IMG/VR virus record: IMGVR_UViG_2648501437_000025
Strand: one strand, 5' to 3'
DNA: 38,438 bases
Origin: a virus
Taxonomy: Duplodnaviria; Heunggongvirae; Uroviricota; Caudoviricetes
The notes under the pieces were generated by a model that was not told the DNA's origin, did no database searches, and saw nothing but the letters and a program-made list of their open reading frames with translations. How positions within the stretch are numbered: position 1 is the first letter of the stretch; each line of letters opens with the position of its first letter. A program made the translations under genes and the position numbers. This document shows, in pieces, positions 1 through 24,291 of this stretch.

Positions 1-1980
1 GGCATTTACGGGAGAAAAAATCGGCTCAAACATGAAGAAATGAAATGACTGAGTCAGCCGAGAAGTATTTCCCCGCTTATTCGCACCTTCCCTAGCTCTC
101 TGCTGCTCCCGGGTCTGATATTGTTTTGAAAAAGCATCTGCTCTCTGTCTGAGTTCAATTCCTTCCTGTTGTCGCTTGTTGTAATCGTTTATTGATGAAT
201 TTAGTACGTCCTGAGCAATTTTTTCTGCTTGAAGTATGCCCAATTGCTGCTTTAATCGTGCCAGCTTTTTATTTTGAGCTCCGCCATCTCCAATGCCACC
301 TAACCCGAAAACTCCGGGTCGGATATTTTTTTCTATTTCATCAATTTGACGGAGAACATCTGAGATTTTTTGATCAAGGGAGGCCTCACGGCCAATATCC
401 AGCATGGAATCCCATGCCCATTTTGCGGAGTCTGCGACAGCTTTCCATGCAGTCTCAAGATAACCAAGATTTTCTTTAATCTGGTTGGTGCGCTGGATCA
501 TTGAGGATGAGTATGCTTCTGTCGCAATGCGGGCGGCCTCCTGCTGGTTCCCTTCATCCTGTAGCGCCTTAATCTGGTTATAAATCGCAAGTGTCAGAAA
601 ATGGTACTGATCATTAAGTTTTGATATAGCACTGACAGGATCCTTTGCAATTTCATTGAAGTCATTAACCAGTTGTTCGGTTGATATTCCTGTTACTTCG
701 CTCGTTTTTACTATCGCTGTCGTCACTTGCTCCAGCGAACTGCTCGCTACCTTTCCCGAACGCACAAGCTGGTTTAATACTGCCGCCGCAGCGCCAGTTG
801 TCGAATCAGCCGCATTCCCGGCACGTTGAGCTATATCGGCCAATTGCCCGCTGGTTGTCCCCAACTGATTTCCGGTAAGAATAAGAGATTTATTAAATTC
901 GTCCTGCTCCTGAGAGCCTTTATAGTAAGCCAGCCCTAAGACGCCAACGGCTGCTGCGGCCAGGGTAAAAGGATTAATTAATCCCAGCACATAAGAACCT
1001 ACACCTTTGATCGCCGGGCCAATCCCACCGAACATATCTTTTAGCTGGCCGCCCTGCTGCATTAACACCATAAATGGCGACTGACCAGTGGACAACCCAA
1101 CAACAATATCCGTCATTTGTGCAGGCAACATGCGCATAGCAAAAGCCGTTTGTTTTGCCGACATTCCGGTTTTGCTTAATTGCGATTGAGTAACCTCAAG
1201 CTCACTCCGCATAGCACGAAGTTTTCCAGAAAGCTCCTCATACATTTCAGGAGAAAGCATCCCCTTAGCTTTTGCTTCATTGAGCTGTTTCTGTTGTTCT
1301 ACCAGACGATTAAAAGCAGTTCCGACAGGATCAAGTTGAGCAATCAGACGTTGCAAAGCAGCAACCTGTTCATCATGTGCTTTTGCTGCTTCTCGCTCTG
1401 CCTGAGCCTCTCCGGTAAGCTCTCGCCGTGTTTCCTGTATTTTTCGGCTATAATTCTCAAACTGAGAACCATTTATTTTCCCGGATGCAAACGCAGCATT
1501 AAGTTCATCCTGCTGTTGTTCAAGATTTCTTAGCGCCGCAGCCAGAGGGTCGATCTTGTCCAGCATTCTTTGAAAGGCCTGAGCCTGCGCTTCCTGCTGG
1601 GCGGCAGCAAGTTTTCCAGCCTTCTCGGCTTCTCTCTGCGCTTGCGCAACCCCGCTCAATTCCTCTGTGGTTTCATTAAGTTTACGGACAAGAAATTCAT
1701 ATTCTTCTTTATCAATAAGCCCTTTATCGAAAAATTTCTTTAATTCAGAATAGCGTCGACCGACAGTATCAATTGCGGCACCAACTGGATCAATAGCTGC
1801 TTTTAATTTTGCGAGCGCGTTCTTCTCATCTTCTGTTGCCTTAGTCACTTTCCCTGCGCTATTTGCAGCAGTTTCCCCAGCCTGCGTCATTTTGACTAAT
1901 GAGGAGGTCAGATTGTCAGCATTATTTTTCGCTCCAGTGCTATCAATAATTATTGCGAGACGCGAGGTTTGCTCTGCCAT
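1..1980 (-). CDS. Tail tape measure protein, 5' part only (ORF runs off the window start)
   Basis: Minus-strand ATG at 1978-1980 preceded by AGGAG; my translation of the first ~100 codons is Ala/Leu/Lys/Glu-rich and coiled-coil-like ([40 protein letters not shown]...); position directly downstream of the tail chaperone pair. Absence from the complete-ORF track is consistent with the frame staying open to position 1; I did not translate the full length. Confidence 0.7.
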
Positions 1981-2143: not shown

Positions 2144-2466
2144 CTACACACACTGCTCCTGAAAATACTGGTCATCCAGTGCAAAGATCACTGCTTCAAA
2201 TTCATCGCGCTCAATCAATACCGGATGAGTGGCTAAATATTCATTTATCTCTGTCAGAGATAAAGGCAAAGGCACCCCAGTCATTCCAGCATAACGTCGG
2301 GCACGGGATATTACCGAATAGGCGTACAACAATTCCTTAAGCACCGGGTCTATTTCTGGTTCCGGTATCGGTGGCAACCTGAGTTTTTCTCGCTTCCATC
2401 TTGCCTTTTCCCCCCTTTCTCCCCCGAACTCCGATAACCACCGTTGGGCGGCTATGGCTTTTTTAT
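2144..2466 (-). CDS. Tail assembly chaperone -1 frameshift extension (T portion of a G/GT pair)
   Basis: Frame open from the slippery site at the end of the upstream chaperone ORF through 2144; -1 frame relative to 2452..2913; no independent ATG or RBS. Confidence 0.6.
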
Positions 2467-2913
2467 CGTATCCTGCTTCTGCTGCTCTTTACCCTGGGCG
2501 ATGCTGGCTGCTTCTGCAAGGATCTGCCAGTACAACTCTGGATTCTGCTTAAGCAGCGCGATCCCTCGTTCTGGCGTATATTCCAGTGCAACCTCAACAC
2601 CATTAACCAGTTCACCAACCCCTTTCCAGTCTTTCAGCAGATAACGAGCGGCATTATCAATGAGTAAATCATCAACAGAATCCACCTCGGAAACCTTTGA
2701 AATATCAAACTCCTTCGTTCCGACGTGCAAACTGGCATCCATTTTCTCAATGTGGCGACGGATTAATGCATTACGGGAGCGATACTGATCGTTATCGCTG
2801 CTTGCCACCAACAGTTTTAACCCGTCTACAGGTTTTAAGTCCTTCATTGGCGTAAACCAGCGTTCTCCACCGATGATAATTTTCTGATTAAGAATAAACA
2901 TCCATAACCTCAT
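2452..2913 (-). CDS. Tail assembly chaperone (G-like)
   Basis: 153-aa ORF between major tail protein and tape measure; ends ...ATA AAA AAG CCA TAG, with the heptamer A AAA AAG in frame. Confidence 0.65.
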   Translation of the reverse strand: MRLWMFILNQKIIIGGERWFTPMKDLKPVDGLKLLVASSDNDQYRSRNALIRRHIEKMDASLHVGTKEFDISKVSEVDSVDDLLIDNAARYLLKDWKGVGELVNGVEVALEYTPERGIALLKQNPELYWQILAEAASIAQGKEQQKQDTIKKP

Positions 2914-2961: not shown

Positions 2962-3924
2962 TCAACTAATCGCCTCAGCACTGGCTTTTGCGATCACGGC
3001 AGCCGGGGAGTTTTTTTTTCTGGTTATCGTAGGTGCTTCATCTGCTGCGGTAATGCTCAGTTGAACCTGGATAATGTCAGTATTACCACCGTCAGGCCAT
3101 TCACCTGACACCTGAACCTTCGGGAAACTGAAAGTGTATGCCCCCTCTCCATTCGAAAGCGTGAAGCTGAACGGAACTGTTTCTCCAGTCAGTGTTTTAC
3201 TCCAGATTTCCCACGCGGCTTTAGACCATGAAAGCGTCACCGTACCGGACGGTGTAAAAGTAGTCGGAATATTTGCTCCTGCATAAGGCGAGCCAGTCCC
3301 GATACAACGCTGTGTCTGGAGTTTGTTATCGAACTGAATATCAAAACTGTCGATACAAAAACCGTTACCTCCGGCAACACCATTCAGGCTTACTGCTGAA
3401 ACCTCCTTAAACGAATAACGTAGCTTTCCTGCACTATCCACAGGTTCGCCTTTGATAAAATTCGTATCATCGGCCTTTGATTCCCAGTCCAGTCCGGCAA
3501 AGGTTACGGTCGCTGTAATATCGCCGTCGTTAGGGATCTGCATTTTCCATGAGCCAACCTGCGCTCCTCTGACGACAGAGGCAATTCCGACATCGGACGC
3601 ATAGGTCGCCAGAGAAAATGTTATTCGCTCATTCCCCATTGTCAGAGAATCGCCTGACCATTCCGCGCCGAAACAGGATGCAAGAAAATCATCATGTTGA
3701 CCCCAGCGAAATTTGGTACCAACATCACCGCCGACATCCACAGTGCCAGGCGTCGCCCCCTGAGCCATCCGGGAGCCACCAATCTCATTATTTTCGCCTT
3801 TATTCTGGGTGGGTTTTACTCCCCAGCTTGTGCGTTTTAATAAACTCCAGTCACCACTTGCTGGCGTAGTGCCTGCAACCGTCTCCCGGATAAATGCCGA
3901 GATAACCTTTGCACCTGAACTCAC
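2962..3924 (-). CDS. Major tail (tube) protein
   Basis: 320-aa Gly/Thr/Ser-rich ORF upstream of the chaperone/tape measure genes; canonical siphovirus position. Confidence 0.6.
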   Translation of the reverse strand: MSSGAKVISAFIRETVAGTTPASGDWSLLKRTSWGVKPTQNKGENNEIGGSRMAQGATPGTVDVGGDVGTKFRWGQHDDFLASCFGAEWSGDSLTMGNERITFSLATYASDVGIASVVRGAQVGSWKMQIPNDGDITATVTFAGLDWESKADDTNFIKGEPVDSAGKLRYSFKEVSAVSLNGVAGGNGFCIDSFDIQFDNKLQTQRCIGTGSPYAGANIPTTFTPSGTVTLSWSKAAWEIWSKTLTGETVPFSFTLSNGEGAYTFSFPKVQVSGEWPDGGNTDIIQVQLSITAADEAPTITRKKNSPAAVIAKASAEAIS

Positions 3925-3950: not shown

Positions 3951-4343
3951 CTAGAGCGCGCGATATGGAATTTGAAGATTAAGCTGGAACCAGCCATTCT
4001 TTTCGCCAACGGTTATTGAGGAAACAGCCTGGTAACTGAGACGGTCGTCATCCTGAAACTCAAACAGTTCCCGCAATTTATCGGCTGTCTCAGTAATGAG
4101 TTTTGAACCAGAACCTGCGGGGACAAATAACTGAATAATGATTATCCCCGTGCGATAAACAACCGGCCCCGCGCCAATTTCATTAACTCCAGCCTGCCCG
4201 GGAATATTACTTAACCGCGCCCAGATTAACTTACCGGAAGGATCGAACGTTGGCCCGTTCGGATACAATACGTCTTTTCCATTAATAACCGTCTGTGCCG
4301 TCATTCTGGAAATGACCGTATTTCTGATTTCAGTAAACGTCAT
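3951..4343 (-). CDS. Tail completion / tail terminator-like protein
   Basis: 130-aa ORF immediately upstream of the major tail gene; assignment by gene order. Confidence 0.4.
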   Translation of the reverse strand: MTFTEIRNTVISRMTAQTVINGKDVLYPNGPTFDPSGKLIWARLSNIPGQAGVNEIGAGPVVYRTGIIIIQLFVPAGSGSKLITETADKLRELFEFQDDDRLSYQAVSSITVGEKNGWFQLNLQIPYRAL

Positions 4344-11689: not shown

Positions 11690-12758
11690 CACTCCTTACT
11701 CTGGCATCAACCACATTAATATTGATCGCCACAGGCTGGGGATGTTCATTATCTTCCACCGTTTCGATCTCTTTGCGCAGCTTCTGGTTTTCCATTCTGC
11801 GTCGTTCAATTTCCAGTTCCTGTAGCCGCTTATCTGCACATAAAGCCCCGCCAGCAGAAAGCAAACGCAACAATTCACGCCGGGCGGCAGCCTTATCCTC
11901 CAGCAGGATCTCAACGCCGAATTTTCCGAGTTTTGCCCCTGCATATAATTGCCGCGCATCCCCATCAAGCAGAGTGGTATCAGCCATATAAAGCTGTCCC
12001 GTTCCCTCACCGCAGCACTTCGGGCAGTCCGGATTGGGTATGGCGTTATCAACAAAGCCGAGGCCTCCATATTCCGGTTCGGGTTTGCCATCTCTGGAAG
12101 CCTGCGCCGCTGCCTTGTCGAATTCTGCTATATCGCGCCACTGGTAGAGATGATTCTCGCCCCAGCAATAACGGCAGTTAACACGGCGAAATTGTGCAAG
12201 CTGATTGGGGTCGGCCAGGACAATGGCCATCAACTGACTCACCAGTAAATCCAGGTCTGCGGTATAGCGTTTCTGGTACTGATTGCGGAAGTAGCTGATA
12301 GCGCGAAAAACCCTGGCATTTCTAAGCATACGACTGGCGTTGCTGTTAGCTGTCGCACCTTGCCCCTCATAACCGGCTAGTCGGTACGCCTCTGTCGGCT
12401 TTTTCCCCTGAGCAACAAGCATCGCAAACTTAGCCTGCTGGTCAGAAATGCCGAATTCATCGGGACAGAACGAAAATTCCTCCGCGTCGCCCTCATTCAG
12501 GCCCGCATCGAATACTGGCTTTTTTTCCTGAGATTTTTCGTTCCGCTTTTGTGCAGTCTGCGCAGATTTTTTCTGCGCACTTTTTTGCGCAGTTTTGCGC
12601 ATTTCTGTCTGCGCATTTTTCGGAGGTTTTTTGATGTAACGACGGGCTGTTGCGTAATTCAGTCCCCTTGCTTCACACCATGCCACCGGAGATATACCGG
12701 AGCGGGTGTATTCAGCAATATACTCCTGCTGCAACGCCCCCCAGTCCGGTCTGCTCAT
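11664..12758 (-). CDS. Putative terminase small subunit / DNA-recognition packaging protein
   Basis: 364-aa ORF immediately upstream of the large terminase; basic N-terminal HTH-like segment and Cys cluster (CPKCCGEG). Confidence 0.5.
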   Translation of the reverse strand: MSRPDWGALQQEYIAEYTRSGISPVAWCEARGLNYATARRYIKKPPKNAQTEMRKTAQKSAQKKSAQTAQKRNEKSQEKKPVFDAGLNEGDAEEFSFCPDEFGISDQQAKFAMLVAQGKKPTEAYRLAGYEGQGATANSNASRMLRNARVFRAISYFRNQYQKRYTADLDLLVSQLMAIVLADPNQLAQFRRVNCRYCWGENHLYQWRDIAEFDKAAAQASRDGKPEPEYGGLGFVDNAIPNPDCPKCCGEGTGQLYMADTTLLDGDARQLYAGAKLGKFGVEILLEDKAAARRELLRLLSAGGALCADKRLQELEIERRRMENQKLRKEIETVEDNEHPQPVAININVVDARVRSDEDDLSDA

Positions 12759-12761
12759 CAG

Positions 12762-13013
12762 TTAGTCCTGATTTTTATCCACCCTGAGTAGTTCGCGCAG
12801 AGCAAAGGCATCCCCTTTTCTGGCAAGCTTAAACAATGCCGCTCGTAACTCGGCTTCACCTTTCGCTCTGCCCTTACGGATGGCCGCATAAAAATCTGTC
12901 ATTGCTTCCCGATTTTCTTTCAGTCGGTTCAGATCAACATCCAGAACGTCAGCGATTTGTTGTGCAGTCATCCGGCACGCTGCCAGAGACTCGACTTTCG
13001 AATACGGAATCAT
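12762..13013 (-). CDS. Small HTH-like protein upstream of the terminase genes
   Basis: 83-aa ORF with AGGGGTGA RBS; segment MTAQQIADVLDVDLNRLKE looks like a helix-turn-helix; overlaps the 3' end of the upstream gene by 65 nt. Confidence 0.4.
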   Translation of the reverse strand: MIPYSKVESLAACRMTAQQIADVLDVDLNRLKENREAMTDFYAAIRKGRAKGEAELRAALFKLARKGDAFALRELLRVDKNQD

Positions 13014-13881
13014 TTGTCACCCCTATTGATATGCAGGGTGTCTTCTTCCTGTATTTTTCGTGAAGGATTTTTACTGCAGCGTTGTTCCAGGTGACCTGAT
13101 GGTGAATGCGTTTATGGCTGGCACCCATCAGTGAGATTTTTACGCACGACGGCGCATACATGACGGAGTAAAAACTTTTAACGTAGGTTCCGGAATCCAG
13201 ATACAGCTCGGTCATTCCGCCGCTGTTTTTCTGCGTCTGTTTCTGCCCTAACTGGACAGCACCGATCGTCATAAACAATTCACCACAGCGACCGAGATTC
13301 GTGTACGTATTCACATCCTCGTTAATGCGCCCCATGAATGAGAACGGTCGATCAACCGAACAGATAAAGCTGTTCATTGCCTTGCGTTTCACCCACGAAG
13401 CATGGCCGCCATTGTCACCAAGAAAATCCCCGCCCTGCGACATAGCGATGGAAAGAGCAGGTATTGATTCGTAGTACGCCAGCATTTCAGAAAGGATCGC
13501 ATCCAGTTTCCTTATCGGAAAATAGGCCTGGTCATAGTTGCGATCCACCCGAAACTGGAACTCGTGATAATCATCATCGAGCTGAATGAAGTATTTACAC
13601 CCGACCAGTTTTGCCAGGTCGAAACAGGCATTACGGGCGTAAAAAATTGAGCGGCGGTCACCGAAATTATCGGCTTCGTCAAAACGACTGGCGATATCGG
13701 CTTTGGAAAACACCAGCACCTGTTCACCAAATTCAGCCATGTACTGATGCCGTGTCTTATCTTCATCATCAACAACGATAAAAATTTTCCCGGTATAGCC
13801 AGCACGACGCAACGTCCGGTAAGTCAGAACTTTGTCCGGTCGCCCGTGAGTCAGAATAAAGGCGCAAAAATCATCACGCAT
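12949..13881 (-). CDS. GT-A fold (family 2-like) glycosyltransferase-like protein
   Basis: N-terminal pattern FILTHGRPD...KIFIVVDDEDKT followed by LDDDYHEF (DxD-like) resembles GT2 signatures; ATG 13881 with GAGGAGGAGG RBS lies inside the end of the ParB-like gene. Possibly the intact counterpart of the K-12 Rac ydaY remnant (from memory). Confidence 0.5.
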   Translation of the reverse strand: MRDDFCAFILTHGRPDKVLTYRTLRRAGYTGKIFIVVDDEDKTRHQYMAEFGEQVLVFSKADIASRFDEADNFGDRRSIFYARNACFDLAKLVGCKYFIQLDDDYHEFQFRVDRNYDQAYFPIRKLDAILSEMLAYYESIPALSIAMSQGGDFLGDNGGHASWVKRKAMNSFICSVDRPFSFMGRINEDVNTYTNLGRCGELFMTIGAVQLGQKQTQKNSGGMTELYLDSGTYVKSFYSVMYAPSCVKISLMGASHKRIHHQVTWNNAAVKILHEKYRKKTPCISIGVTNDSVFESRVSGSVPDDCTTNR

Positions 13882-14665
13882 ATTCCTCCTCCTCACCACC
13901 ATGCATGATCTCCACCATGCGCTGCGTCATCCGGACAAATCCATTTTCAATAGCCTGCTGATAATCAATGATCACCAGCGCCGACTCCTCGAAAAAACAC
14001 TGAATTTCAGCGGGGGCGTGAGCGTAATAGTCCGCAATTCTGCTGAAATTAAACACCGTGTGACGTTCTGCCGCACACAGGAGGAATTTCTCAATATCAG
14101 GCTCAAGAGACGCCGAACGTATCCGGCTGATCAGCTCCTGAGTTTTCGTATCGTCGTACAGTTCACTGATATCCGGTTTACCGCCCGACGGCTCATAAAC
14201 AGGCGTATCAATTTTCGTCGTATACGGCTCCTCCTCATTTTCTGTACCGGGCAAAACATCCGTCAACAGTTCATCAATTTCTGTCGGGCTGAAGCCTGTC
14301 AGGGAGACATCAAAATCAGCATTGATTAGGTCCGACAGCTCCATCCGTAACAGATCTTCATCCCAGCCAGCATTCATCGGCAGGCGATTATCTGCCAGGC
14401 GGTACGCCTTTTTCTGATCATCCATCAAACCAGACAGAACGATGACCGGAATGGAATCCATTTTGAGCACTTCAGCCGCCATAACGCGACCGTGACCAGC
14501 AATAATTTCGCCCTTTTCATCAATCAGCACCGGATTAGTCCAGCCGAATTGCTTAATGCTTTCTACCAGTTGTGCCACCTGCTCAGGGCTGTGTGTCCTG
14601 GCGTTGTGTGCATACGGAGACAGTTCTTGTAAAGGGCGATAGACGATCTTCAATTTCTCGCTCAT
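13874..14665 (-). CDS. ynaK: ParB-like nuclease (ParB N-terminal / sulfiredoxin-like) domain protein
   Basis: N-terminal VYRPLQELSPYAHNARTHSPEQVAQLVESI...GEIIAGHGRV matches the ParB-N motif; acidic C-terminus; symbol by remembered similarity to the K-12 Rac YnaK fragment. Confidence 0.65.
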   Translation of the reverse strand: MSEKLKIVYRPLQELSPYAHNARTHSPEQVAQLVESIKQFGWTNPVLIDEKGEIIAGHGRVMAAEVLKMDSIPVIVLSGLMDDQKKAYRLADNRLPMNAGWDEDLLRMELSDLINADFDVSLTGFSPTEIDELLTDVLPGTENEEEPYTTKIDTPVYEPSGGKPDISELYDDTKTQELISRIRSASLEPDIEKFLLCAAERHTVFNFSRIADYYAHAPAEIQCFFEESALVIIDYQQAIENGFVRMTQRMVEIMHGGEEEEYA

Positions 14666-14802
14666 ACAGCCTTGCTTTATGAATAAAACGCACCCCAGCA
14701 GCCAGTGCTACTGGGGGCGGAGGTGTTGCTGGTAAAGTTAGGTATTGGATCAATGAGTGAGTCAATATAATATTAAACTCACAATTATAAATCAGCCATA
14801 TA

Positions 14803-16260
14803 TTAGGAGCGCCAAAAAAAACCTGAAAACAATATAATAACAGGATAAATTTCAAGGCGACCAAGAATCATAGCTATGCACATTAAATATTTTGCAATGT
14901 CATTAAGCACTCCGAATGACGATGCAGTAGCCCCAAAACCTAATCCCATATTATTAATACATGCAGCCACTGTTGCAAATGATGTAAGAAAATCATATCC
15001 CATACCATTTAACACCAGTATAAAAAACACCGTGAAGAGAGTATAAAGAAAAAAGAAACTCCATACAGACCTCATTACACGATCTGTAACTATCTTCCCT
15101 CCTACATTTACACTCAACAACGCTCTGGGATGAGAAAGCTGGTTTATCTCGTGTTTGCTTTGTTTGAAAAGTATAAGAAATCGAAGTGACTTAATTCCAC
15201 CACAAGTTGAACCTATACATCCCCCAAAGAAACTTGACAACAGCAAAAACACTATCGTGTGCGTGGGCCAGTTTGCATAATCCTGCGTAGCTAAACCATT
15301 ATCAGTGAGCATGGAGCTGGCAAGAAAAAACGAATGAATAAAACTTCCAGGCAAGTCATACATACCTATATGCCAGACCTGGAAAGAGGTAACAATGATC
15401 ACCCCTAAGGCTATTAACAGAAAGAAACGAAGTTCAATATCTCTGATTAAAGGTTTTAACGTTTTCCTGCTAATAACAATATACCAAAGGGTGAAGTTGA
15501 AAGCCGATAGCAGGGAAAAAGAACCAGCCACCAGCTCAACCAAATAGTTATTAAAATATCCGATACTCTCGCTATGAGTTGAGAAACCACCAAGCGAAAC
15601 TGTGGATATCCCGTGACAAATAGCATCAAACAAAGGCATTCCTGCAAGTCTATAACAGACAATACAAGCAATACCTAATAAAGAATAAGTTATCCAAAGT
15701 GTCCGTGACGTATCGGCCAGGCGGGGAGTAAGTTTGTCATCCTTAAATGGCCCTGGCATTTCTGACTGATAAAGCTTTGCACCACCAATACCCAATAATG
15801 GCAATACAGCAACCGCCAGAACAATAACTCCTAAACCACCTATAAAATTTAACTGCGACCGATAGTACAAATATGCCCGAGGTAATGAACTAACATCATC
15901 AATTACAGTTGCTCCTGTTGTTGTTATTCCAGAAACCCCTTCAAACAGAGCATCAATGAACGTTAAATTAAGTTCTGAGTCAATCCATAAAGGGAATGCA
16001 CTAATAACAGAAAACAAAATCCAAAACATTACAATTATAATAAACCCATCACGGGTACGTAATTGAATGCCAGATTTCTTAGTTGTATACCACGCTCCGC
16101 CACCAATGCAAAAAAATATAACGAAAGTTATAAAGAAAACGAACAGGCTTTTTTCTTTATAAAACAATGCTACAACCATTGGTGGCAACATTGAAAGACT
16201 ATAGAGCCAAACCAGGAACCCACACATATGAGTAACAACTCTTACATGAGATGTATTCAT
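14803..16260 (-). CDS. trkG: Trk-system potassium uptake protein TrkG (TrkH family)
   Basis: Polytopic membrane protein with repeated Gly-rich selectivity-filter-like segments (GITTTGATV, GGLGV, GLGFGAT); AT-rich gene between the lysis cassette and packaging genes as in K-12 Rac; ATG at 16260 (MNTSHVRVV...). Confidence 0.9.
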   Translation of the reverse strand: MNTSHVRVVTHMCGFLVWLYSLSMLPPMVVALFYKEKSLFVFFITFVIFFCIGGGAWYTTKKSGIQLRTRDGFIIIVMFWILFSVISAFPLWIDSELNLTFIDALFEGVSGITTTGATVIDDVSSLPRAYLYYRSQLNFIGGLGVIVLAVAVLPLLGIGGAKLYQSEMPGPFKDDKLTPRLADTSRTLWITYSLLGIACIVCYRLAGMPLFDAICHGISTVSLGGFSTHSESIGYFNNYLVELVAGSFSLLSAFNFTLWYIVISRKTLKPLIRDIELRFFLLIALGVIIVTSFQVWHIGMYDLPGSFIHSFFLASSMLTDNGLATQDYANWPTHTIVFLLLSSFFGGCIGSTCGGIKSLRFLILFKQSKHEINQLSHPRALLSVNVGGKIVTDRVMRSVWSFFFLYTLFTVFFILVLNGMGYDFLTSFATVAACINNMGLGFGATASSFGVLNDIAKYLMCIAMILGRLEIYPVIILFSGFFWRS

Positions 16261-16397
16261 ATCTAAATATTCTTTCAATTATAACCACCTTGCTGCAATA
16301 TTATGATTATACTGTATAAAATTTAACTCCTCTTAGATCTTACTTCACTGTTCCTTATGAAACAATCATCAAAATGAATCATATTGTAGTTAAGATT

Positions 16398-16862
16398 TTA
16401 CTTTAAACACTGTTCGGTTATGTATTGCTGAGCACCTTCAAGTTGGGCCTGCATCATTACCAGTCGTTCCCGGAGGGTGAAATAATCCCGTTCAGCGGTG
16501 TCTGCCAGTCGGGGGGAGGCTGCATTATCCACGCCGGAGGCGGTGGTGGCTTCACGCACTGACTGACAGACTGCTTTGATGTGCAACCGACGACGACCAG
16601 CGGCAACATCATCACGCAGAGCATCATTTTCAGCTTTCGCATCAGCTAACTCCTTCGTGTATTTTGCATCGAGCGCAGCAACATCACGCTGACGCATCTG
16701 CATGTCAGTAATTGCCGCGTTCGCCAGCTTCAGTTCTCTGGCATTTTTGTCGCGCTGGGCTTTGTAGGTAATGGCGTTATCACGGTAATGATTAACAGCC
16801 CATGACAGGCAGACGATGATGCAGATAACCAGAGCGGAGATAATCGCGGTTACTCTGTTCAT
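16398..16862 (-). CDS. Rz-like i-spanin
   Basis: N-terminal TM segment then coiled-coil periplasmic domain; ATG at 16862 overlaps the endolysin stop (ATGA). Confidence 0.8.
16457..16642 (-). CDS. Rz1-like o-spanin lipoprotein (embedded in Rz, +1 frame)
   Basis: Signal peptide with lipobox VVGC, proline-rich mature part (PPPPPAW...PPPDW), fully nested within the Rz gene. Confidence 0.7.
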
Positions 16863-17356
16863 TGCTGACCCCACAAACAGATTTCACGCTCAATCTCACG
16901 ACGAGTCATGAGACCTTTCCATTGCTTACCGCCAGCATATGTCCAGCGACGTAGCTGATCACATGCGCCTTTGATATCGCCCTGGTTTATTTTGCGAAGA
17001 AGCGTCGATGTTCTGAAATTGCCAGCACCCACGTTGTAAACGAATGAGTAAAGAGCGCCGCGCGTTGTTTCCGGTATATCGACTTTGATGTACGGGTTAA
17101 TTTGTCTGGCGACAGTGGCAAGGTCTTTATTCAAGAGTGCTTTGCATTCTGCTTTGGTATACGTTTTACCGAGCATGATGTCTTTTCCTGTATGCCCGTG
17201 ACATACAGTCCATACACCAACAATATCTTTGTATGGTATGTAGCTGACACCTTCCAGACCATCGTTACCACTTGGGCCAGTGATTAACACTGATGCTATA
17301 GCAATTGCTCCGCCACCAATAGCAGCAGCAACGGCTTTTCGTAATGATGGAGGCAT
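16859..17356 (-). CDS. SAR endolysin (phage lysozyme)
   Basis: N-terminal Gly/Ala-rich weakly hydrophobic segment ([18 protein letters not shown]) typical of signal-anchor-release endolysins, followed by a lysozyme-like domain; start overlaps the holin stop. Confidence 0.85.
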
Positions 17357-17571
17357 TATTCACCTCTCGCAGCCTTGCGCTTATCTTCTTTAATCTTGAA
17401 ATAAAGGTTTGTCAGGTACGTCAGCAGGCCAAAAACCAGACTACCCAGCACACCGATTGCAGCCCACTGTGACGGAGTTACTCTATCGAGCAACTGTAAA
17501 AACCAGTAGCCAGCACTGCCTGCGGAGGTGCCATAGGCGACACCCGTTGTTAACTTATCCATGGATTTCAT
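17356..17571 (-). CDS. Pinholin (phage 21 S-like), dual start
   Basis: [26 protein letters not shown]... closely resembles the phage 21 S pinholin from memory; two in-frame ATGs (17571 and 17562) as in holin/antiholin pairs; GAGGTGGGGG RBS. Confidence 0.85.
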
Positions 17572-17842
17572 AACCCCCACCTCGCAGATGCGGGCGCTGT
17601 GTAATGGAAACAAAAAATGGCCACCAGCGGCCCGTAAAAAACACCCCGCCAAAAGCACCGGCATCCGCAGATGCCCTTTGCGTGGCGTTATTTGATGCGC
17701 GCCAGATGTGGCGCAAAGAAATGAAATAAGACTTACCTGAAATTAAGGTTAATCTGAGGATTTAAACCATTTTTAAAGCTTAGTAATATCAACTCGTCTC
17801 CCGGAGGAGACCGATACTTACTCTTCTTCACGGACTTTGTCC

Positions 17843-17876
17843 CGCGGCGTTAATCCGACGGCCGCGCTTTTTTTTT
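17843..17876 (+). terminator. Plus-strand hairpin followed by T9 (intrinsic terminator-like) inside the non-coding leader
   Basis: cgcggc...gccgcg inverted repeat followed by nine T; no plus-strand ORF upstream. Confidence 0.4.
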
Positions 17877-17958
17877 GCGCCATATTCATCGCTAACTTAC
17901 ATGGCATTGCCACACGGGCATTATCAGTGTCCGTGTTTCTTTTTTTAGGGTTCAGAAT

Positions 17959-17984
17959 AAAAAAAACCGCCCGGTGGAGGCGGT
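17959..17984 (-). terminator. Minus-strand intrinsic terminator-like hairpin in the late leader
   Basis: Plus strand A-run then accgcc-cggtgga-ggcggt; on the minus strand a stem-loop followed by a U-run. Confidence 0.45.
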
Positions 17985-18251
17985 AAAGGATGTATTTCCA
18001 GGTTTTGCTTAATATATGATTAATCTCAATGTCATGGTGTTATTTACAACACCAGAATGATGCATCACCGACCCTGCCAGGAAATATAAAATCTCCGCCG
18101 AAAATGCACCATTCTGCTGCCGTAAAAAAATCAGCACTGCGGCTACACCCGACCCCAAATCATAGCCAGAGAACAGAATGTTTTTAACAATCTACCCCCA
18201 CGTAATAAAAAAATACGTCAGTGCCGTCACTATAAGGCGTATTTCAAATGT

Positions 18252-18326
<75 letters not shown>

Positions 18327-18332
18327 ATATGA

Positions 18333-18405
<73 letters not shown>

Positions 18406-18407
18406 AA

Positions 18408-18484
18408 TGGACCGTCACCGGGGACTCGAACCCCGCGCCATCAACTTCGAAGGCTGATGCTCTATCCGGATGAGCTAGTGACGG
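18408..18484 (-). tRNA. tRNA-Arg (anticodon TCG)
   Basis: Acceptor CCGTCAC/GTGACGG, D-arm GCTC...GAGC, anticodon stem TCAGC/GTTGA with loop CTTCGAA, T-arm CGGGG-TTCGAGT-CCCCG, encoded CCA. Confidence 0.8.
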
Positions 18485-18612
18485 TTTTATTGCCACATCC
18501 GTAACGACAGCCAGCGGGAATAATATGCATTCAGAATCAGCCGCCTTAGCTAATTGTGCAACCATCTGCTCTTTGCAAGTGCACTTAACGTCCTGCGCCA
18601 CTTTTCAGGCAT

Positions 18613-18635
18613 AAAAAAACCCGCAAAAAGCGGGC
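18613..18635 (-). terminator. tR'-like intrinsic terminator downstream of the Q gene
   Basis: Minus strand cccgc-uuuuu-gcggg followed by U7, about 100 nt downstream of the Q stop and upstream of the tRNAs and lysis genes. Confidence 0.55.
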
Positions 18636-18695
18636 TCTTTCAAATATCCATGTCTGCTATTCGCCTCGCGATACAGCTTTGCGAAGCGTACTGGA

Positions 18696-18724
18696 ATTAA
18701 AGCAGTTTGTTGCTCATTTTGCAA
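18696..18724 (-). promoter_or_regulatory. Candidate late promoter (pR'-like) between Q and the tR'-like terminator
   Basis: Minus strand TTGCAA, 17-nt spacer, TTTAAT, placed just after the Q stop codon; sequence-only prediction. Confidence 0.35.
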
Positions 18725-18731
18725 TGATTTT

Positions 18732-19268
18732 TTAAGCATAATCGAACGCTTCTCTCATAGGTGAATACAAAATGAACTCTGCAACACGCAACCACTGATC
18801 AACACGACGTCGGCATGTAATCAACGCCCACTCTGGGTACTGTTCGTTTAATAACTCGGCCATCCTTCTCTTACTCATCCCTCGCCCCACATAACGCTGA
18901 CTCAGGACATTTAGTAGTCCTGGATGATCCGCCAGAACTTCACCTATAACACTATCAATTTTTAGTGCCTCTGCATCAGTGCAGTGAGTTAACCAGCTTT
19001 TTTGCTTTCCTTCGATCATCTCACGCAAAAATGCTTCCAACTCTGGTTTATCAATTCCCGCTTTTTTCAATCTGCGCAGGGCTTCATTGATGGCTGTTTT
19101 TGTCATTTTTTGGGATGCCAGCAACTGGTTAAACATATTCCCTGACCTGCCGCCGCCAATATACGACCAGCGCCCCCACATACGTAGTTTTCCCTGAATC
19201 CAGACACTTTCCAGCGTGGTGAGACGAAGGTGTTCTCCGCTTTTTCCTGTATTCGTTGGGTAAATCAT
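18732..19268 (-). CDS. Late-gene antitermination protein Q-like
   Basis: Last gene of the nin block, directly upstream of the promoter/terminator/tRNA/lysis arrangement; ATG 19268 with AGGAGGG RBS (track ORF extends to 19388); family assigned by position and size, not a confirmed motif. Confidence 0.6.
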   Translation of the reverse strand: MIYPTNTGKSGEHLRLTTLESVWIQGKLRMWGRWSYIGGGRSGNMFNQLLASQKMTKTAINEALRRLKKAGIDKPELEAFLREMIEGKQKSWLTHCTDAEALKIDSVIGEVLADHPGLLNVLSQRYVGRGMSKRRMAELLNEQYPEWALITCRRRVDQWLRVAEFILYSPMREAFDYA

Positions 19269-19555
19269 AAATATCCCTCCTTTCTCCAGATTTCTTGTGT
19301 GCGAAAAACACCTTCTGCATGCATCAGGCGTAATTCTTCTTTGGTGTAATCGCTGGTTTTTACCCGCCCGTCGATTAAATCGTGGCACGAGCTACAGGCA
19401 ATTGCTGCCTGCATATCGTGTGGCTTTATCGCTGTTCCGCACGTACCCGCCAGTCGGTAATGAGCCAGTACAGACGTTTCAGGATTGTGATTGCAGTAGC
19501 CTGGGATTCTGACCTGGCACATCTGGCCCTGCGCCGCTTTACGTAAATTCACCAT
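19265..19555 (-). CDS. ybcO: YbcO-like (DUF1364) nin-region protein
   Basis: 96-aa protein with Cys pattern CQVRIPGYCNHNPETSVLAHYRL...CSSCHDLIDGR, closely resembling E. coli prophage YbcO as I remember it. Confidence 0.7.
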   Translation of the reverse strand: MVNLRKAAQGQMCQVRIPGYCNHNPETSVLAHYRLAGTCGTAIKPHDMQAAIACSSCHDLIDGRVKTSDYTKEELRLMHAEGVFRTQEIWRKEGYL

Positions 19556-20154
19556 TACGCAAACTCCAGCAGCTGCGCGGCCACATTTTCGACCTCCTCC
19601 GGAGAGGAAAACTTACGACACAGGATCCAGTTCCACAGTACGTTGAGTACTGCTTTATAAACCTGCTGAAACTCGGTTTCGTCCATATTCGCAAACGCGA
19701 TGGATTTCGCCCTGCGCCCACGGCTACCGTCCGGATAAAAATGCTCGGTGTAAAATCCGGCCTGAATGGTTACCCACTCGCGGAAAGCCTCAAACGACTT
19801 TAGCAATGCCGTATCCCGGGTTCTGCGTGTCGCAACGGTATTCAGATATTGCTCTGCGGCATCACTCAGGGCTGGAGTATGTTCCCGACCTACTGATTCG
19901 CACAGGTAATCAACGAAACCGGACACCAGTTCTCGTTCGCGAGGCGTGATCGCCCCACCGGCCGGAGTCCAGTAATCGAATCCCAATTGCAGGAGTTTGA
20001 AAAAACGCTTGTGGAATGCGTAGTTACGAACACGCTTAAAGTCAGCGTGTATCCACTCGCCTATTTTGATTTGATGCAGAAAATCGCAACTCTCCGGCGT
20101 CGCCGGGAGAAGTAATCCGGAAGAGGTTTGTTTGACCAGTTGTATATGCGCCAT
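19555..20154 (-). CDS. Nin-region protein (DUF1367-like)
   Basis: 199-aa ORF directly upstream of ybcO, one-nucleotide stop/start overlap; family from memory, low certainty. Confidence 0.4.
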   Translation of the reverse strand: MAHIQLVKQTSSGLLLPATPESCDFLHQIKIGEWIHADFKRVRNYAFHKRFFKLLQLGFDYWTPAGGAITPRERELVSGFVDYLCESVGREHTPALSDAAEQYLNTVATRRTRDTALLKSFEAFREWVTIQAGFYTEHFYPDGSRGRRAKSIAFANMDETEFQQVYKAVLNVLWNWILCRKFSSPEEVENVAAQLLEFA

Positions 20155-20225
20155 CGTAGTTCTCCGCTGGCGCAGTAGAATGGGTGTTCAGCCCGTTATG
20201 TAGTATATCAGAATTAATGCCAATA

Positions 20226-20477
20226 CTAACAGGATGCTCTGACTCGCAATTCATCCAGCAGTTTATCATTTCCCATAATGTCACTTACCCTCATCGGTAA
20301 AAAAATTGCCTTTCGACCATTACGATACATCATTGATTTTGGGGTTTCAGGGAAGTAATCCATTTCGACTATAACTGACAGGTCATCACGACGTATGACT
20401 GCGTATTTGCTACTAAATAGTTTCTTTATTTTTTCCACGATGCCTCCAGGTTTATAAGTACAAAAGGTTATATCCAC
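20226..20477 (-). CDS. Hypothetical 83-aa protein in an AT-rich segment
   Basis: ORF in a visibly AT-rich stretch between the Doc cassette terminator and the nin genes; no recognisable motif. Confidence 0.4.
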   Translation of the reverse strand: MDITFCTYKPGGIVEKIKKLFSSKYAVIRRDDLSVIVEMDYFPETPKSMMYRNGRKAIFLPMRVSDIMGNDKLLDELRVRASC

Positions 20478-20623
20478 ATAGAGACAAAAATATTAATCTG
20501 AAAAATATTTATTTCACGTCGTATATTTGATTGTTTAATGTGCAGGTACAATGACTTTTATTTTTGGCTGTGTATATAATCAAATATATGGTTATTTTTC
20601 ACCCTGCATATTCAGCACGCAAC

Positions 20624-20643
20624 AAAAAACCCGCCGAAGCGGG
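20624..20643 (-). terminator. Intrinsic terminator (cUUCGg-loop hairpin + U-run) after the Doc cassette
   Basis: Plus strand aaaaaa-cccgc-cgaa-gcggg; the same 22-nt element recurs at 21464. Confidence 0.6.
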
Positions 20644-20661
20644 TTTTCATTAGAAGCATCT

Positions 20662-21156
20662 TTAGTTTTGCTGTTCTATTTTAAGCTTGATAGTTTCATA
20701 CAAAACAATAGTTGCGCCTGTTTTACATAATTCCCGACTGTCATACGCACGAGACCAATAACACAACCAATTTTCAAGCTCTTCTCGTGTATAAATTTTA
20801 CAGGCCAGCCCCTCAGCCATCTCCACAACTTCATCGCCTGGTGCGGTTAATTCGTATCCATTTAACAATAAAAAAACCGCACCAGCCATCATTGCTGTGC
20901 GCTTGTTTGCATTGGCAAATGGATGATTCTGAATCAGACTTTCAATCAATACCGATGCCAGTACAAACATGTCGTTGGTTTGCTCATACCATCGAACCAT
21001 ACTGGGACGAGACTGAGAAGAACTTAAATTATCAACACTCAGCACACCAACAGGTTCATCTGGTGTTTGAAGCTCAATTAAAAGGCGATTAATTTCAGTA
21101 AGATCATCAACCGAAAGGTAGTGCACTCCTTCAACAATCTCAGCCATAGAGCACAA
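20662..21156 (-). CDS. doc: Doc-family toxin (Fic/Doc fold)
   Basis: Contains HPFANANKRTAMMAG, a variant of the Fic/Doc HxFx(D/N)(A/G)NKR active-site motif; preceded by a small partner ORF. Confidence 0.8.
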   Translation of the reverse strand: MCSMAEIVEGVHYLSVDDLTEINRLLIELQTPDEPVGVLSVDNLSSSQSRPSMVRWYEQTNDMFVLASVLIESLIQNHPFANANKRTAMMAGAVFLLLNGYELTAPGDEVVEMAEGLACKIYTREELENWLCYWSRAYDSRELCKTGATIVLYETIKLKIEQQN

Positions 21157-21167
21157 TACCCATCATT

Positions 21168-21344
21168 ACACTTTTGAAAGATCTTCCATTGCCTTCTCGT
21201 AACGAGAAAAACCGAAATCGAAAGCATTTTTCACCTGCTCACGATGAGTGCAATTTTCATCGATAGCCGGGCGCGGAGCTGCCACAACGCTTTTATCGCG
21301 AGGGGGAATAGTCAATCGCGGGTGTTTTTTTAGTGCGTAGCTCA
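21168..21344 (-). CDS. Putative antitoxin partner of Doc (58 aa, family not recognised)
   Basis: Small ORF (MSYALKKHPRLTIPPRDKSVVAAPRPAIDENCTHREQVKNAFDFGFSRYEKAMEDLSKV) with AAGGG RBS, ending just upstream of the Doc start; below the 60-aa track cutoff. Confidence 0.5.
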
Positions 21345-21463
21345 TTGGTGTACCCTTACTTCTCCGTCCTGTTCTTTAACAAAAATTAAGTCAATACAAA
21401 ATTAGTCAGGCTAATGTTGTTAGCATAGCCTAATACCAATCGTATTCACAACCACAGTACGTG

Positions 21464-21483
21464 AAAAAACCCGCCGAAGCGGG
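21464..21483 (-). terminator. Intrinsic terminator (cUUCGg-loop hairpin + U-run) at the 3' end of the hok locus
   Basis: Identical core to the 20624 element: aaaaaa-cccgc-cgaa-gcggg. Confidence 0.6.
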
Positions 21484-21553
21484 TTAAGTGCGGGTGCGTT
21501 GAGGATGCCTGACATATCAGAGGTGGCGGGAGATTACTCTCCCGCCCGGTCTC

Positions 21554-21709
21554 TTACTCCTCAGGTTCGTAAGCTGTGAAGACAGCGACCTCCGTCTGCC
21601 CGGTTCGGATTCGTACCTCGCAGAGGTCTTTCCTCGTTACCAGTGCCGTCACTATGACGGTTAAACAGATGACGATCAGGGCGACTAACATCGCCTTTTG
21701 CTGCTTCAT
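21554..21709 (-). CDS. hok: Hok/Gef-family type I toxin
   Basis: MKQQKAMLVALIVICLTVIVTALVTRKDLCEVRIRTGQTEVAVFTAYEPEE is near-identical to E. coli HokC/Gef as I remember it; AAGGAG RBS. Confidence 0.85.
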   Translation of the reverse strand: MKQQKAMLVALIVICLTVIVTALVTRKDLCEVRIRTGQTEVAVFTAYEPEE

Positions 21710-21766
21710 AGCCTGCATCTCCTTGACCTTTCGGTCCGTAAGAGGCAATCTATATGTGACGAGCAT
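21554..21766 (-). CDS. mok: Mok (in-frame N-terminally extended reading frame over hok)
   Basis: 70-aa ORF MLVTYRLPLTDRKVKEMQAMKQQ... matches the MokC-style extension; GAGG RBS upstream of the ATG at 21766. Confidence 0.6.
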   Translation of the reverse strand: MLVTYRLPLTDRKVKEMQAMKQQKAMLVALIVICLTVIVTALVTRKDLCEVRIRTGQTEVAVFTAYEPEE

Positions 21767-21806
21767 ATAGGGGCCTCACTTCGATTTATAGTCGGGTGGG
21801 GCTTTT
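21745..21806 (+). ncRNA. sok: Candidate Sok-like antisense RNA (approximate bounds)
   Basis: Plus-strand hairpin gcctcac...gtggggc followed by TTTT at 21773-21806, antisense to the mok translation-initiation region; 5' end not determined. Confidence 0.35.
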
Positions 21807-21949
21807 ATCTATCTGCCGTTGGTGTTCATGCCCGAGGCTGATAGCCTCAAGCACCCGCAGCAATTTTACTTAATTTCCCTTTAGTCAGAAATCATTTTTT
21901 AATCTATCTTGAAACAAGACTCAAATTCACAAATAAATTAAATATAAAA

Positions 21950-22852
21950 CTAAAACTCTATTTTTTGTGCCGGACGTGAGTTTAAAATCCAGCACTCCTG
22001 ATGTGTATGATGTATAGTTAGTAGATTGTCAAACTGAGATTTCTTAGCGTCAAATTCCATTTTATTTTTAAAGTCAACATTAAAATCTCCTGTTTCAATA
22101 GAGGCAAGAGCTTTGAGTCTATTGCATTCAGCATGCATATCAATTATATCGCTAAAACCTTCGCTTTTAATTCTTTTATTAACATAGTTCGTATAAATCC
22201 CTGCATGTTTATAAGAATCCATCACAGTGTATAATCCATCACCATCAATATCTGTAGGAGATGACATCCATTTAAAAACATGTAGAAGAAAAATATTTGC
22301 TGACCAAGGAAACACCACCCCATTAGCAAATGTTTCTGAAGTACCAGAACTAAGACTTTCATTAAGATTAGTCGCACCGATTAAGATCACATCGGTTTCA
22401 AACTCGTTCCGTTTACCAGCACCTACAAAATTAAAGGTCCCGGCATAGCATTGCCCAAGATAAACAACAGCATTTTTAAGATTTGGGGCTTCCTTCAAAG
22501 CCTTCAGTAATTGGCTTGGTGGGATAGGTTTCTGTGCATCAAGTCCATGAGGGCCACCATGACCAGTTACAAACATAACTATGTTATCATATGTATTATC
22601 ATTTAAGTCATTAAAAAAAACTGCTGATGGTTTTGACTTAAAAGGATATCTAGAAGCGAGTGCAAAAGCACCATCGTAATTCATTGAAGGGCTATCTATA
22701 TATATCGAAATATCATCTGGATTGATACCTGCCTTTTCGAGGCACATCACACCAAAGACTAAATCGACAACATGACGAAATTCCACTGCAGCTTTCGAAC
22801 AAGGCAAAAACATCACCCACCTTGTGCGTTCAGACCTAAGACTCATATACAT
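21950..22852 (-). CDS. Clan CD (legumain/caspase-like) cysteine peptidase-like protein
   Basis: Motifs NIVMFVTGHGGPHG and NAVVYLGQCYAG, 37 residues apart, follow the hydrophobic strand + His-Gly ... hydrophobic strand + Cys layout of legumain/caspase catalytic dyads; AT-rich gene; alternative start at 22813 with AAGGTGG RBS. Confidence 0.55.
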   Translation of the reverse strand: MYMSLRSERTRWVMFLPCSKAAVEFRHVVDLVFGVMCLEKAGINPDDISIYIDSPSMNYDGAFALASRYPFKSKPSAVFFNDLNDNTYDNIVMFVTGHGGPHGLDAQKPIPPSQLLKALKEAPNLKNAVVYLGQCYAGTFNFVGAGKRNEFETDVILIGATNLNESLSSGTSETFANGVVFPWSANIFLLHVFKWMSSPTDIDGDGLYTVMDSYKHAGIYTNYVNKRIKSEGFSDIIDMHAECNRLKALASIETGDFNVDFKNKMEFDAKKSQFDNLLTIHHTHQECWILNSRPAQKIEF

Positions 22853-22877
22853 CCTTGGTGGTTCGAAATGTACTTAA

Positions 22878-23174
22878 TTAAAGATTAAAATTATATCCAG
22901 AGAACACTGTATTACTGAGTGATGATGGTCTTGGTAAATCACTAAAATAAAACACTTCATCAATACTCAAGTGTTCGGTAATTTTTGTGGGCATAATCTG
23001 CCCTCGCTCATTCATGCCAAAGATATCATTACCGGTTTTTAGAAAAAATGTTATTTCCACGGTAATCCTGTAACTATTGGATTTGAAAAGCATCCATTGC
23101 CCAAGATTCACACACTCTTTTACTGCATCAGAGGTATCAGGCAACTCAGAAGATTGTAACCCCGTGAATTTCAT
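22878..23174 (-). CDS. Hypothetical 98-aa protein, first gene of the AT-rich island
   Basis: ORF with AAGGA RBS 8 nt upstream of the ATG at 23174; 25 nt upstream of the peptidase-like gene; no recognisable motif. Confidence 0.5.
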   Translation of the reverse strand: MKFTGLQSSELPDTSDAVKECVNLGQWMLFKSNSYRITVEITFFLKTGNDIFGMNERGQIMPTKITEHLSIDEVFYFSDLPRPSSLSNTVFSGYNFNL

Positions 23175-23302
23175 TTTCAGTCCTTATAGCTGCTTATGTA
23201 CTGAATTGCACTAAGCAACCTTTAATACCATTGCGACGAACAACAACCGTGTGATCGCTACCACGACCACACTGAAAATATAACTTTACATATTCATTAT
23301 CG

Positions 23303-23386
23303 TCAACCCCAGCGGCAAATCGAATACACCACCAGCGCCACCGCCATCGCAATTCCTACCGTAGTGAATGCCTCAGGCCAGGTCAT
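23303..23386 (-). CDS. 27-aa hydrophobic micro-ORF, translationally coupled
   Basis: MTWPEAFTTVGIAMAVALVVYSICRWG; ATG overlaps the stop of the upstream gene (ATGA) and is preceded by AGGAGGTGA at 5-nt spacing. Confidence 0.4.
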   Translation of the reverse strand: MTWPEAFTTVGIAMAVALVVYSICRWG

Positions 23387-23778
23387 TGATTCACCTCCTG
23401 CTCAATATTTTTCAGATCATTTTCCGCATACAGTATTGCTGTCCTGGCTGCTCGTAACCGGGCTTTGGCATTTTTCTCTTCACGTTCAAGTTTTGCCACA
23501 GCTTCACGAAGAGCATCCCGCTTTGCATAGAGTGATTTAATCTCAGTCACGATGTTTTCACCGTTTCTCGCACGGTCAAGAACAAGCTCGAACGGATCTA
23601 AAGCCAATCCACACCGTTTGCAGGTAATCGTACGATTCACTTCTGAAATTGTTGTACGGATATGCTGACAGCATTTTTGCTCGACACTTTTTTCGTCGGT
23701 TATCACAACGTTGAGGAGTCCTTCCTCCTCTGATTTTGGCTGCACCAGGGTGATAACATTGTCGCCTTCATTTTTCAT
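23383..23778 (-). CDS. Zinc-ribbon + coiled-coil protein (paralog A)
   Basis: CCQH...CKRCG...DPF followed by a charged coiled-coil (EREEKNAKARLRAA); shares this architecture with the ORF at 25529..25927. Confidence 0.5.
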   Translation of the reverse strand: MKNEGDNVITLVQPKSEEEGLLNVVITDEKSVEQKCCQHIRTTISEVNRTITCKRCGLALDPFELVLDRARNGENIVTEIKSLYAKRDALREAVAKLEREEKNAKARLRAARTAILYAENDLKNIEQEVNQ

Positions 23779-24290
23779 CAGTTCACCTCCTGCGGTGGTT
23801 CCGGTAGCGGCATCCAGTGAGTTGCCTGCTCAATACCATTACCCGGCTTAATCGTTGCTTCCCCTCGCCGGAATGTGCTTCCTGTATAGCGTGCGGAGCA
23901 TATTAGCGGTTCAACCAGAGAGCTATCGAAATTCACCGAAATAAGCACGTTCTGATTCTTTTCCGGCATTCGCTCACTACAGCTTATCCATGCATCCGGA
24001 GTTGCCGGCACTGGCTGGGCGGTGTAAAGTGGAACAACTCGCCCTCCCCATTGCTTAACACTACTCTCAGCGAACACTAAATGCTCAGTCCGATAATACC
24101 CAGGGGCATCAATATCTTTTCTTTCGCTATCCCACATGTAAACCACCGGCTCTGCTTCCAGCGATGCCAGTGCGATACGAAACACATTGGCAAGCAGGCT
24201 GTCTGAAGATTGGTTATCGTGCGCCGGGTCGCTCAGGAAACCAGTGATGAATGATTTAATCTCCGCTTTTTCTCTGGTAATAGTGGTCAT
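23778..24290 (-). CDS. DUF551-domain protein
   Basis: C-terminal segment WISCSERMPEKNQNVLISVN...THWMPLPEPP resembles the DUF551 signature from memory; start placed at ATG 24290 (MTTITREK...), 1 nt after the upstream stop. Confidence 0.6.
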   Translation of the reverse strand: MTTITREKAEIKSFITGFLSDPAHDNQSSDSLLANVFRIALASLEAEPVVYMWDSERKDIDAPGYYRTEHLVFAESSVKQWGGRVVPLYTAQPVPATPDAWISCSERMPEKNQNVLISVNFDSSLVEPLICSARYTGSTFRRGEATIKPGNGIEQATHWMPLPEPPQEVN

Positions 24291-24291
24291 T

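Follow-up and report, generated by a model that had tools for sequence, protein, structure and literature searches.

A probable lambda-like G/G-T programmed -1 frameshift signal in the ydaY-family tail assembly chaperone gene of a Rac-type Escherichia coli prophage

G-T frameshifting is widespread in long-tailed phages, and the -1 frameshift of lambda G / G-T has been reviewed (PMC5009743). The window analyzed here is a 38,438-nucleotide stretch of viral DNA (IMG/VR record IMGVR_UViG_2648501437_000025), in which a sequence-only reading had noticed a tail assembly chaperone gene that ends at a slippery heptamer and is followed by a long open -1 frame. This raises the question of whether the locus carries a working counterpart of the lambda signal or a fortuitous combination of a common motif and an open frame. 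The comparison of sequences described below indicates that the site is very probably a functional G/GT programmed -1 frameshift signal, the counterpart of lambda G / G-T. The chaperone gene is referred to here as G and the downstream -1-frame segment as T, with GT denoting the product of both.

Read on the minus strand, the end of G and the beginning of the downstream segment run ...AAG CAG GAT ACG ATA AAA AAG CCA TAG CCG CCC AAC GG..., and the earlier statement that the chaperone ORF closes with ATA AAA AAG CCA TAG was therefore borne out. The -1 frame is free of stops from 2488 to 2144. It offers 104 codons after the shift, 102 of which lie beyond the G stop, in keeping with the roughly 100 open codons down to 2144 that had been claimed. 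The two frames overlap by 34 nt, and A_AAA_AAG is the sole in-phase X_XXY_YYZ heptamer inside this overlap. Although the longest ORF opens at ATG 2913, the true start of G is probably ATG 2901, which yields a protein of 149 aa. The latter is preceded, at a spacing of 6 nt, by GAGG at 2911..2908; the frame of the first ATG is shut at once in seven related loci (ATG AGG TTA TAG), and deposited or annotated G homologues are likewise 149 aa long. The predicted GT fusion would comprise 252 aa from ATG 2901, or 256 aa from ATG 2913, with the junction ...DTIKK/AIAAQRW... (the slash marks the change of frame). Coordinates of these features and the shift codons of relatives are collected in Table 1.

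Table 1. Features of the G/T locus in the window, with the shift codons found in the window's species and in relatives.
Feature	Position	Strand	Remark
Tail terminator gene	4343..3951	minus	5' of G, beyond tube gene
Major tail tube gene	3924..2962	minus	Directly 5' of G; Pfam Phage_tube_2, 1.4e-31
G, tail assembly chaperone gene	2913..2452	minus	Longest ORF, 153 codons from ATG 2913
-1-frame TAA stop	2491..2489	minus	Upstream bound of the interval in which a shift gives the long -1 product
SD-like AGGA	2474..2471	minus	6 nt 5' of heptamer; candidate stimulator
Slippery heptamer A_AAA_AAG	2464..2458	minus	0-frame codons [AT]A AAA AAG; X_XXY_YYZ phase
T segment	2458..2144	minus	104 codons + TAG 2146..2144, -1 frame
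G stop TAG	2454..2452	minus	One codon (CCA) past heptamer
Tape measure gene, 5' part	1980..1	minus	ATG 1980, AGGAG upstream; runs off window
Shift codon, E. coli			ATA AAA AAG
Shift codon, Klebsiella			GTA AAA AAG
Shift codon, Acinetobacter TRS1			GTG GGA AAG
Shift codon, Pseudomonas phages			CTG GAA AAG (G_GAA_AAG)
Shift codon, Erwinia phage			GCA AAG TAA (C_GCA_AAG then TAA)

In a single sequence, without comparison, the heptamer and the open -1 frame are suggestive only. The window contains 20 copies of AAAAAAG, compared with 14.4 +/- 3.3 in shuffled sequences; as the motif is not enriched, its count was dropped as evidence. For the 102-codon stop-free run, P is approximately 0.01 given the stop-trinucleotide frequency of the strand. 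Long -1 extensions beyond stop codons are frequent among the neighboring genes of the window, because downstream genes often lie in the -1 frame in this compact genome, and extension length was for that reason likewise dropped as stand-alone evidence. Since the heptamer and the open -1 frame do not clearly exceed chance when taken alone, the case must rest on context and comparison.

Profile searches placed G and T in a known family. G matched PHROG 313, 'tail assembly chaperone', over profile positions 13-149 of 258 (8.2e-47). The conceptual -1 fusion matched the same profile with a better score and in one colinear stretch, positions 13-246 of 258 (1.4e-51), and it also matched PHROG 8233 (tail assembly chaperone) across the junction. 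When searched alone, T matched PHROG 1189, a family of unknown function (1.8e-36) that evidently consists of separately called T ORFs, and gave a weak match to Pfam Phage_TAC_18 that fell below the cut-off (20.3 bits). The listed G homologues all carry a precomputed assignment to the recent Pfam family PF27119, Phage_YdaY; G itself had no match in NCBIfam or in a copy of Pfam lacking the PF27119 model. A sequence search of the PDB with G returned no match. The AlphaFold2 model of G, calculated with 26 homologues in the alignment, reached a pLDDT of 53.8, which is too poor to test the fold, and a Foldseek search of the PDB with this poor model gave nothing at E<0.9.

The window represents an E. 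coli prophage that is lambdoid and of Rac type; it extends from its integrase end at 38438 to a point within the tape measure gene at position 1. Of 5426 complete E. coli genomes, 1073 contain near-identical DNA, in which the chaperone gene is named ydaY. The order of genes is tail terminator, tube, G/T (2913..2144) and tape measure, which places the pair between the tube and tape measure genes, the position characteristic of the G/GT class. In RefSeq the tube gene bears the name 'phage tail tube protein', and in near-identical records the tape measure CDS, of which the window holds the 5' part, is 3234 nt long.

Several further observations concern this neighborhood. The gap between T and the tape measure gene holds, on the minus strand, a 28-codon ORF (MVSLIKSMMLLEKSIAWPRNRYFYYYVA, 2023-2109) without a clear SD, which precedes a strong terminator-like hairpin (2003-2024) of the form GAAACCCAC-TTCG-GTGGGTTTT plus a T run, situated 5' of the tape measure RBS. 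Relatives carry additional genes at this place (Ail/Lom in E. coli L003, a membrane protein in Klebsiella phages), so that the gap looks like a moron insertion site or the scar of one. On the minus strand at 18252-18484, the Q-like antiterminator and holin genes are separated by three tRNA genes of the prophage, Gly(UCC), Thr(UGU) and Arg(UCG); no tRNA-Lys is among them, and they therefore do not directly concern the A_AAA_AAG site. Just upstream of the terminase genes, a gene for a TET-associated glycosyltransferase (Pfam TAGT, 6.5e-35; 12949-13902, minus strand) adjoins one for a full-length ParB_N-domain protein (13874-14665, minus strand) that is the intact form of K-12 ynaK, an association that suggests a DNA-modification module. 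A TrkH-family potassium transporter gene, the equivalent of trkG (14803-16278, minus strand), has the lysis genes on one side and ynaK on the other, the same placement as in K-12 Rac. Rfam matches were obtained to the RalA antitoxin sRNA (212 bits; 36704-36882, minus strand) and to a sok-type antitoxin RNA (100 bits; 21707-21856, minus strand); a hok/sok-like module would therefore lie inside the prophage. The closest complete-genome relative, E. coli AF58 (NZ_OZ547038.1), carries an anti-phage pair, iteA/iteS. A comparison of AF58 22769-26162 with about 12100-26400 of the window showed that a deletion in AF58 joins a DUF1367 gene to the small terminase gene, where the window has the Q, lysis, trkG, ynaK and TAGT region. 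The difference between the two indicates that the early-late junction of Rac-type prophages is highly variable.

The same neighborhood bears on whether the signal could be intact in a copy that is itself defective or silent, with no frameshifting of consequence. K-12 provides an example of such an end state. There the match to the window begins only at 2803 and ydaY is fused to ynaK (K-12 DHB4 2493-2852), so that K-12 ydaY is a 5'-truncated chaperone remnant, and G is the intact form of this Rac gene. The remnant was left by a deletion of approximately 11.5 kb in which the head and proximal tail genes were lost. K-12 retains the heptamer and the T frame despite the lost 5' end of G, and its shift site is certainly a silent relic. 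Some related loci have T frames truncated to 39-61 codons, and the copy of another strain has lost the lysis genes and part of a terminase gene. Against a fossil signal in the window itself, the late region contains the Q-like antiterminator, holin, lysozyme, Rz, both terminase subunits, portal and capsid genes, followed by the tail terminator, the tube gene and full-length G and T; it is apparently intact, with the window ending inside the tape measure gene. Near-identical modules also occur in GenBank-deposited phage records. We therefore consider it improbable that the site in this copy is a relic.

The evidence that carries the functional reading of the site came from relatives. Searches by tblastn with the fusion protein gave two-piece matches in differing frames in Klebsiella (64% identity), Erwinia (55%), Pseudomonas (32%) and Acinetobacter phages. 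A scan of IMG/VR and of a single genome from each GTDB species contributed further loci from Shigella, E. ruysiae, four Citrobacter species, Raoultella, Siccibacter, Pantoea and Scandinavium. The junction was compared across 168 analyzable related loci, which represent 19 distinct contexts. At all 168 loci the heptamer occupied the same codon, either as (A/G)TA AAA AAG (15 of the 19 contexts) or as GTG GGA AAG (4 of 19), with no mixed forms. The synonymous wobble base of the Ile/Val codon covaries with the codon that follows it in these 19 contexts. Because the site remains X_XXA_AAG even where Lys changes to Gly, selection acts on slipperiness and not on the protein. Relatives from 10 genera (among them Klebsiella, Citrobacter, Raoultella, Siccibacter, Pantoea, Scandinavium, Erwinia, Pseudomonas and Acinetobacter) keep a -1 ORF of 83-117 codons; the shift codon is aligned across their two frames and all sites end in A_AAG. 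The homologue in Acinetobacter phage TRS1, which is a viable phage (PMC5064099), was deposited as a joined two-piece, that is, frameshifted, CDS. The comparative data put the frameshift site far above chance.

The proximity of the stop codon was considered as a part of the signal and rejected. In relatives the 0-frame stop lies 3, 21, 75 or 105 nt past the heptamer while the heptamer stays in place, and in one E. coli copy the TAG has become TTG through an ATA to ATT change that is synonymous in the -1 frame.

A few sequences depart from the common form. The canonical heptamer is absent at the homologous codon of Erwinia phage Gungnir39 (about 1085-1097) and of Pseudomonas phiPSA1 and Aurca01; the Gungnir39 site consists of an A_AAG tetramer plus a stop. 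The Erwinia and Pseudomonas sites could operate by single-tRNA or near-cognate slippage. Providencia stuartii CP114582.1 reads ATA AAA AAA GTC at about 1930-1960, a run of seven A that places G and T in one ORF, and its junction ETIKK/VIEAQKW corresponds exactly to the product predicted for a -1 shift. This sequence may be a genuine GT-only variant or a homopolymer sequencing error. A natural variant, E. coli NB16F79_39920 (240 aa), has an out-of-frame deletion through which G runs into the -1 frame 12 codons ahead of the heptamer, and the resulting junction, …ILAEA/GYDKKAIAAQ…, represents a constitutive G-T fusion.

Marked slippage by bacterial RNA polymerase needs runs of approximately 8-9 nucleotides or more. 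Transcriptional slippage, in which the polymerase adds or drops an A in the A6 run so that a minority of mRNAs carry G and T in one frame and no ribosomal shift takes place, would nevertheless draw on the six-A run at the site and on the seven-A Providencia assembly, where a one-nucleotide change suffices to yield the fusion. Relatives whose sites read GTG GGA AAG, G_GAA_AAG or C_GCA_AAG keep the same arrangement with only 3-4 A, which argues against such a mechanism, as does the A6 length of the site, since the runs named for slippage are An with n>7 (PMC3711429). We regard transcriptional slippage as very improbable, and translational slippage on the heptamer remains the preferred explanation.

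The T segment was then considered as a protein-coding sequence. Between the window and Klebsiella phages, differences at -1-frame codon positions 1, 2 and 3 numbered 35, 24 and 68, a third-position bias showing that T evolves as coding sequence in the -1 frame. The first start-type codon in T occurs at codon 28 in the window, where a TTG directly follows AGG, at codon 49 in Klebsiella and at codon 77 in TRS1; across these three, T has no conserved start-type codon and none with a convincing SD. Among the 27 codons that precede the TTG of the window, 19 are identical to Klebsiella. Independent initiation of T as a small gene in its own right (from TTG 2377 or TTG 2329), with the heptamer incidental, would fit the 61-77 aa ORF called by ORF finders and depositors and entered in GenBank/RefSeq as 'hypothetical protein', but it is very improbable given the lack of such a start, the conservation as protein of the codons before those starts in an alignment that reaches up to the heptamer, and the covariation by which the heptamer remains slippery.

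Under the preferred reading, a programmed -1 frameshift, most ribosomes would read G as a 149-aa protein from ATG 2901 and terminate at its TAG. In a minority, tRNA-Lys bound to AAA in the P site and to AAG in the A site would slip back by one base in tandem and re-pair with AAA AAA. Translation would then continue as GCC ATA GCC... for 104 codons to the TAG at 2146..2144, producing a GT protein of about 252 aa. By analogy with lambda, the tape measure protein would be coated by G together with the G portion of GT, and the less abundant T domain would bring in the tail tube protein. The frequency of frameshifting would therefore set a fixed G:GT ratio. That frequency is probably low, somewhere from about 0.3% up to several per cent. 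The bare heptamer gave a shift of about 0.3% in a reporter (PMC4066793), two prophage chaperone genes of another family reached 6-7% (PMC3711429), and the lambda G:GT ratio is about 30:1 (PMC5009743).

Several known systems resemble this site in different respects. The lambda G / G-T pair is reportedly the subject of work by Levin, Hendrix and Casjens from 1993 and by Xu, Hendrix and Duda from 2004, 2013 and 2014. In the G/GT class as defined by Xu, Hendrix and Duda (2004), G and a scarcer GT fusion are both required for tail assembly but do not occur in virions. As in lambda, the gene pair here has the major tail gene on one side and the tape measure gene on the other, the -1 shift falls at X_XXA_AAG shortly ahead of where G terminates (by a few codons), the segment beyond it is without a start codon, and strong stimulatory RNA structure is absent. 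Unlike lambda, the heptamer is A_AAA_AAG instead of G_GGA_AAG and T comprises 104 codons instead of about 144. An hhalign comparison of the G family alignment with lambda G gave a probability of 0.1%, that is, no detectable similarity, and the resemblance to lambda gpG is one of arrangement and presumed function only. All of the sequence-level features of a G/GT pair set out by Xu, Hendrix and Duda (2004) were found at this locus; position, family, -1 coding and conservation of the heptamer agree with the G/GT arrangement that had been proposed from the single sequence.

A system related by descent is gp18/gp19 of Acinetobacter phage vB_AbaS_TRS1 (NC_031098), a homologous family that tblastn matched in the T part, in which both G and T can be aligned and the shift codon lies at the aligned position. 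TRS1 differs in that it uses G_GGA_AAG and its G extends 26 codons past the heptamer, and its chaperone is only about 30-40% identical. ECs1801 of the E. coli O157 Sakai prophage Sp9 is similar in layout, being a chaperone that ends ...AGA AAA AAG TAG with the heptamer beside the stop, but it belongs to a different family (124 aa; hhalign probability 0.2%). Sharma et al. 2014 (PMC4066793) placed that gene in the cluster A_AAA_AAG_25 and deemed its frameshift safely inferred; their list does not include the ydaY family. The sequence-only reading had likened the heptamer to that of E. coli dnaX. This comparison stood insofar as the heptamer of dnaX gamma/tau is identical and is decoded by the same tRNA-Lys, whereas a dnaX-like downstream stem-loop found no support. 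In dnaX, a strong upstream SD-like element and a downstream stem-loop accompany a shift of about 50%, and the shifted product is the shorter one; the window has only the 4-nt SD-like AGGA, no supported stem-loop, and a shifted product that is longer.

Sequences flanking the heptamer were examined for possible stimulatory elements. Downstream of the site we found no significant or conserved structure, with shuffle fractions of 0.11-0.79, and Rfam returned nothing at the shift site. A 9-bp hairpin begins 2 nt past the heptamer in E. coli; it is weaker in other E. coli copies, is missing from Klebsiella and further relatives, and largely mirrors the conserved AAQRW coding. The downstream hairpin was rejected as a stimulator, being no better than shuffles (fraction 0.12-0.78) and not conserved.

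The upstream side is less clear-cut. AGGA or AGGAG stands 6 nt before the heptamer in 18 of the 19 contexts, and AGGA located 6-17 nt upstream was counted as stimulatory by Sharma et al. 2014 (PMC4066793). Pantoea and Scandinavium retain AGGA though the codon involved is AAG and not CAG. The motif coincides with (Q/K)(D/E) codons and is absent in Siccibacter, Erwinia, Providencia and Pseudomonas. The general view is that phage G-T sites do not require a stimulator. It is conceivable, though rather doubtful, that AGGA(G) acts as a stimulator through anti-SD pairing and sets the G:GT ratio in the ydaY chaperone family; if it does, this element would be unusual among phage G-T sites.

Current annotation of the gene does not reflect the arrangement described here. 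On intact copies RefSeq places a truncated 119-aa model that starts at TTG 2811, with no frameshift annotated, and in copy L003 it flags the gene as 'missing C-terminus'. The truncated model therefore misses both the true start and the GT frameshift product. A literature search for ydaY or Rac together with a chaperone frameshift returned nothing relevant, and the ydaY-family site is an instance of the long-known G/GT frameshift. As a mechanism it adds nothing new to that paradigm. The alternation between GTA AAA AAG and GTG GGA AAG is a clean natural covariation that preserves slipperiness and could help to train frameshift predictors. Should the AGGA reading prove true, K-12 ydaY and the unannotated frame that follows it would constitute a still frameshift-competent relic. 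The main value of the finding lies in the correction of ydaY, whose truncated model is applied to the intact prophages of roughly one in five complete E. coli genomes.
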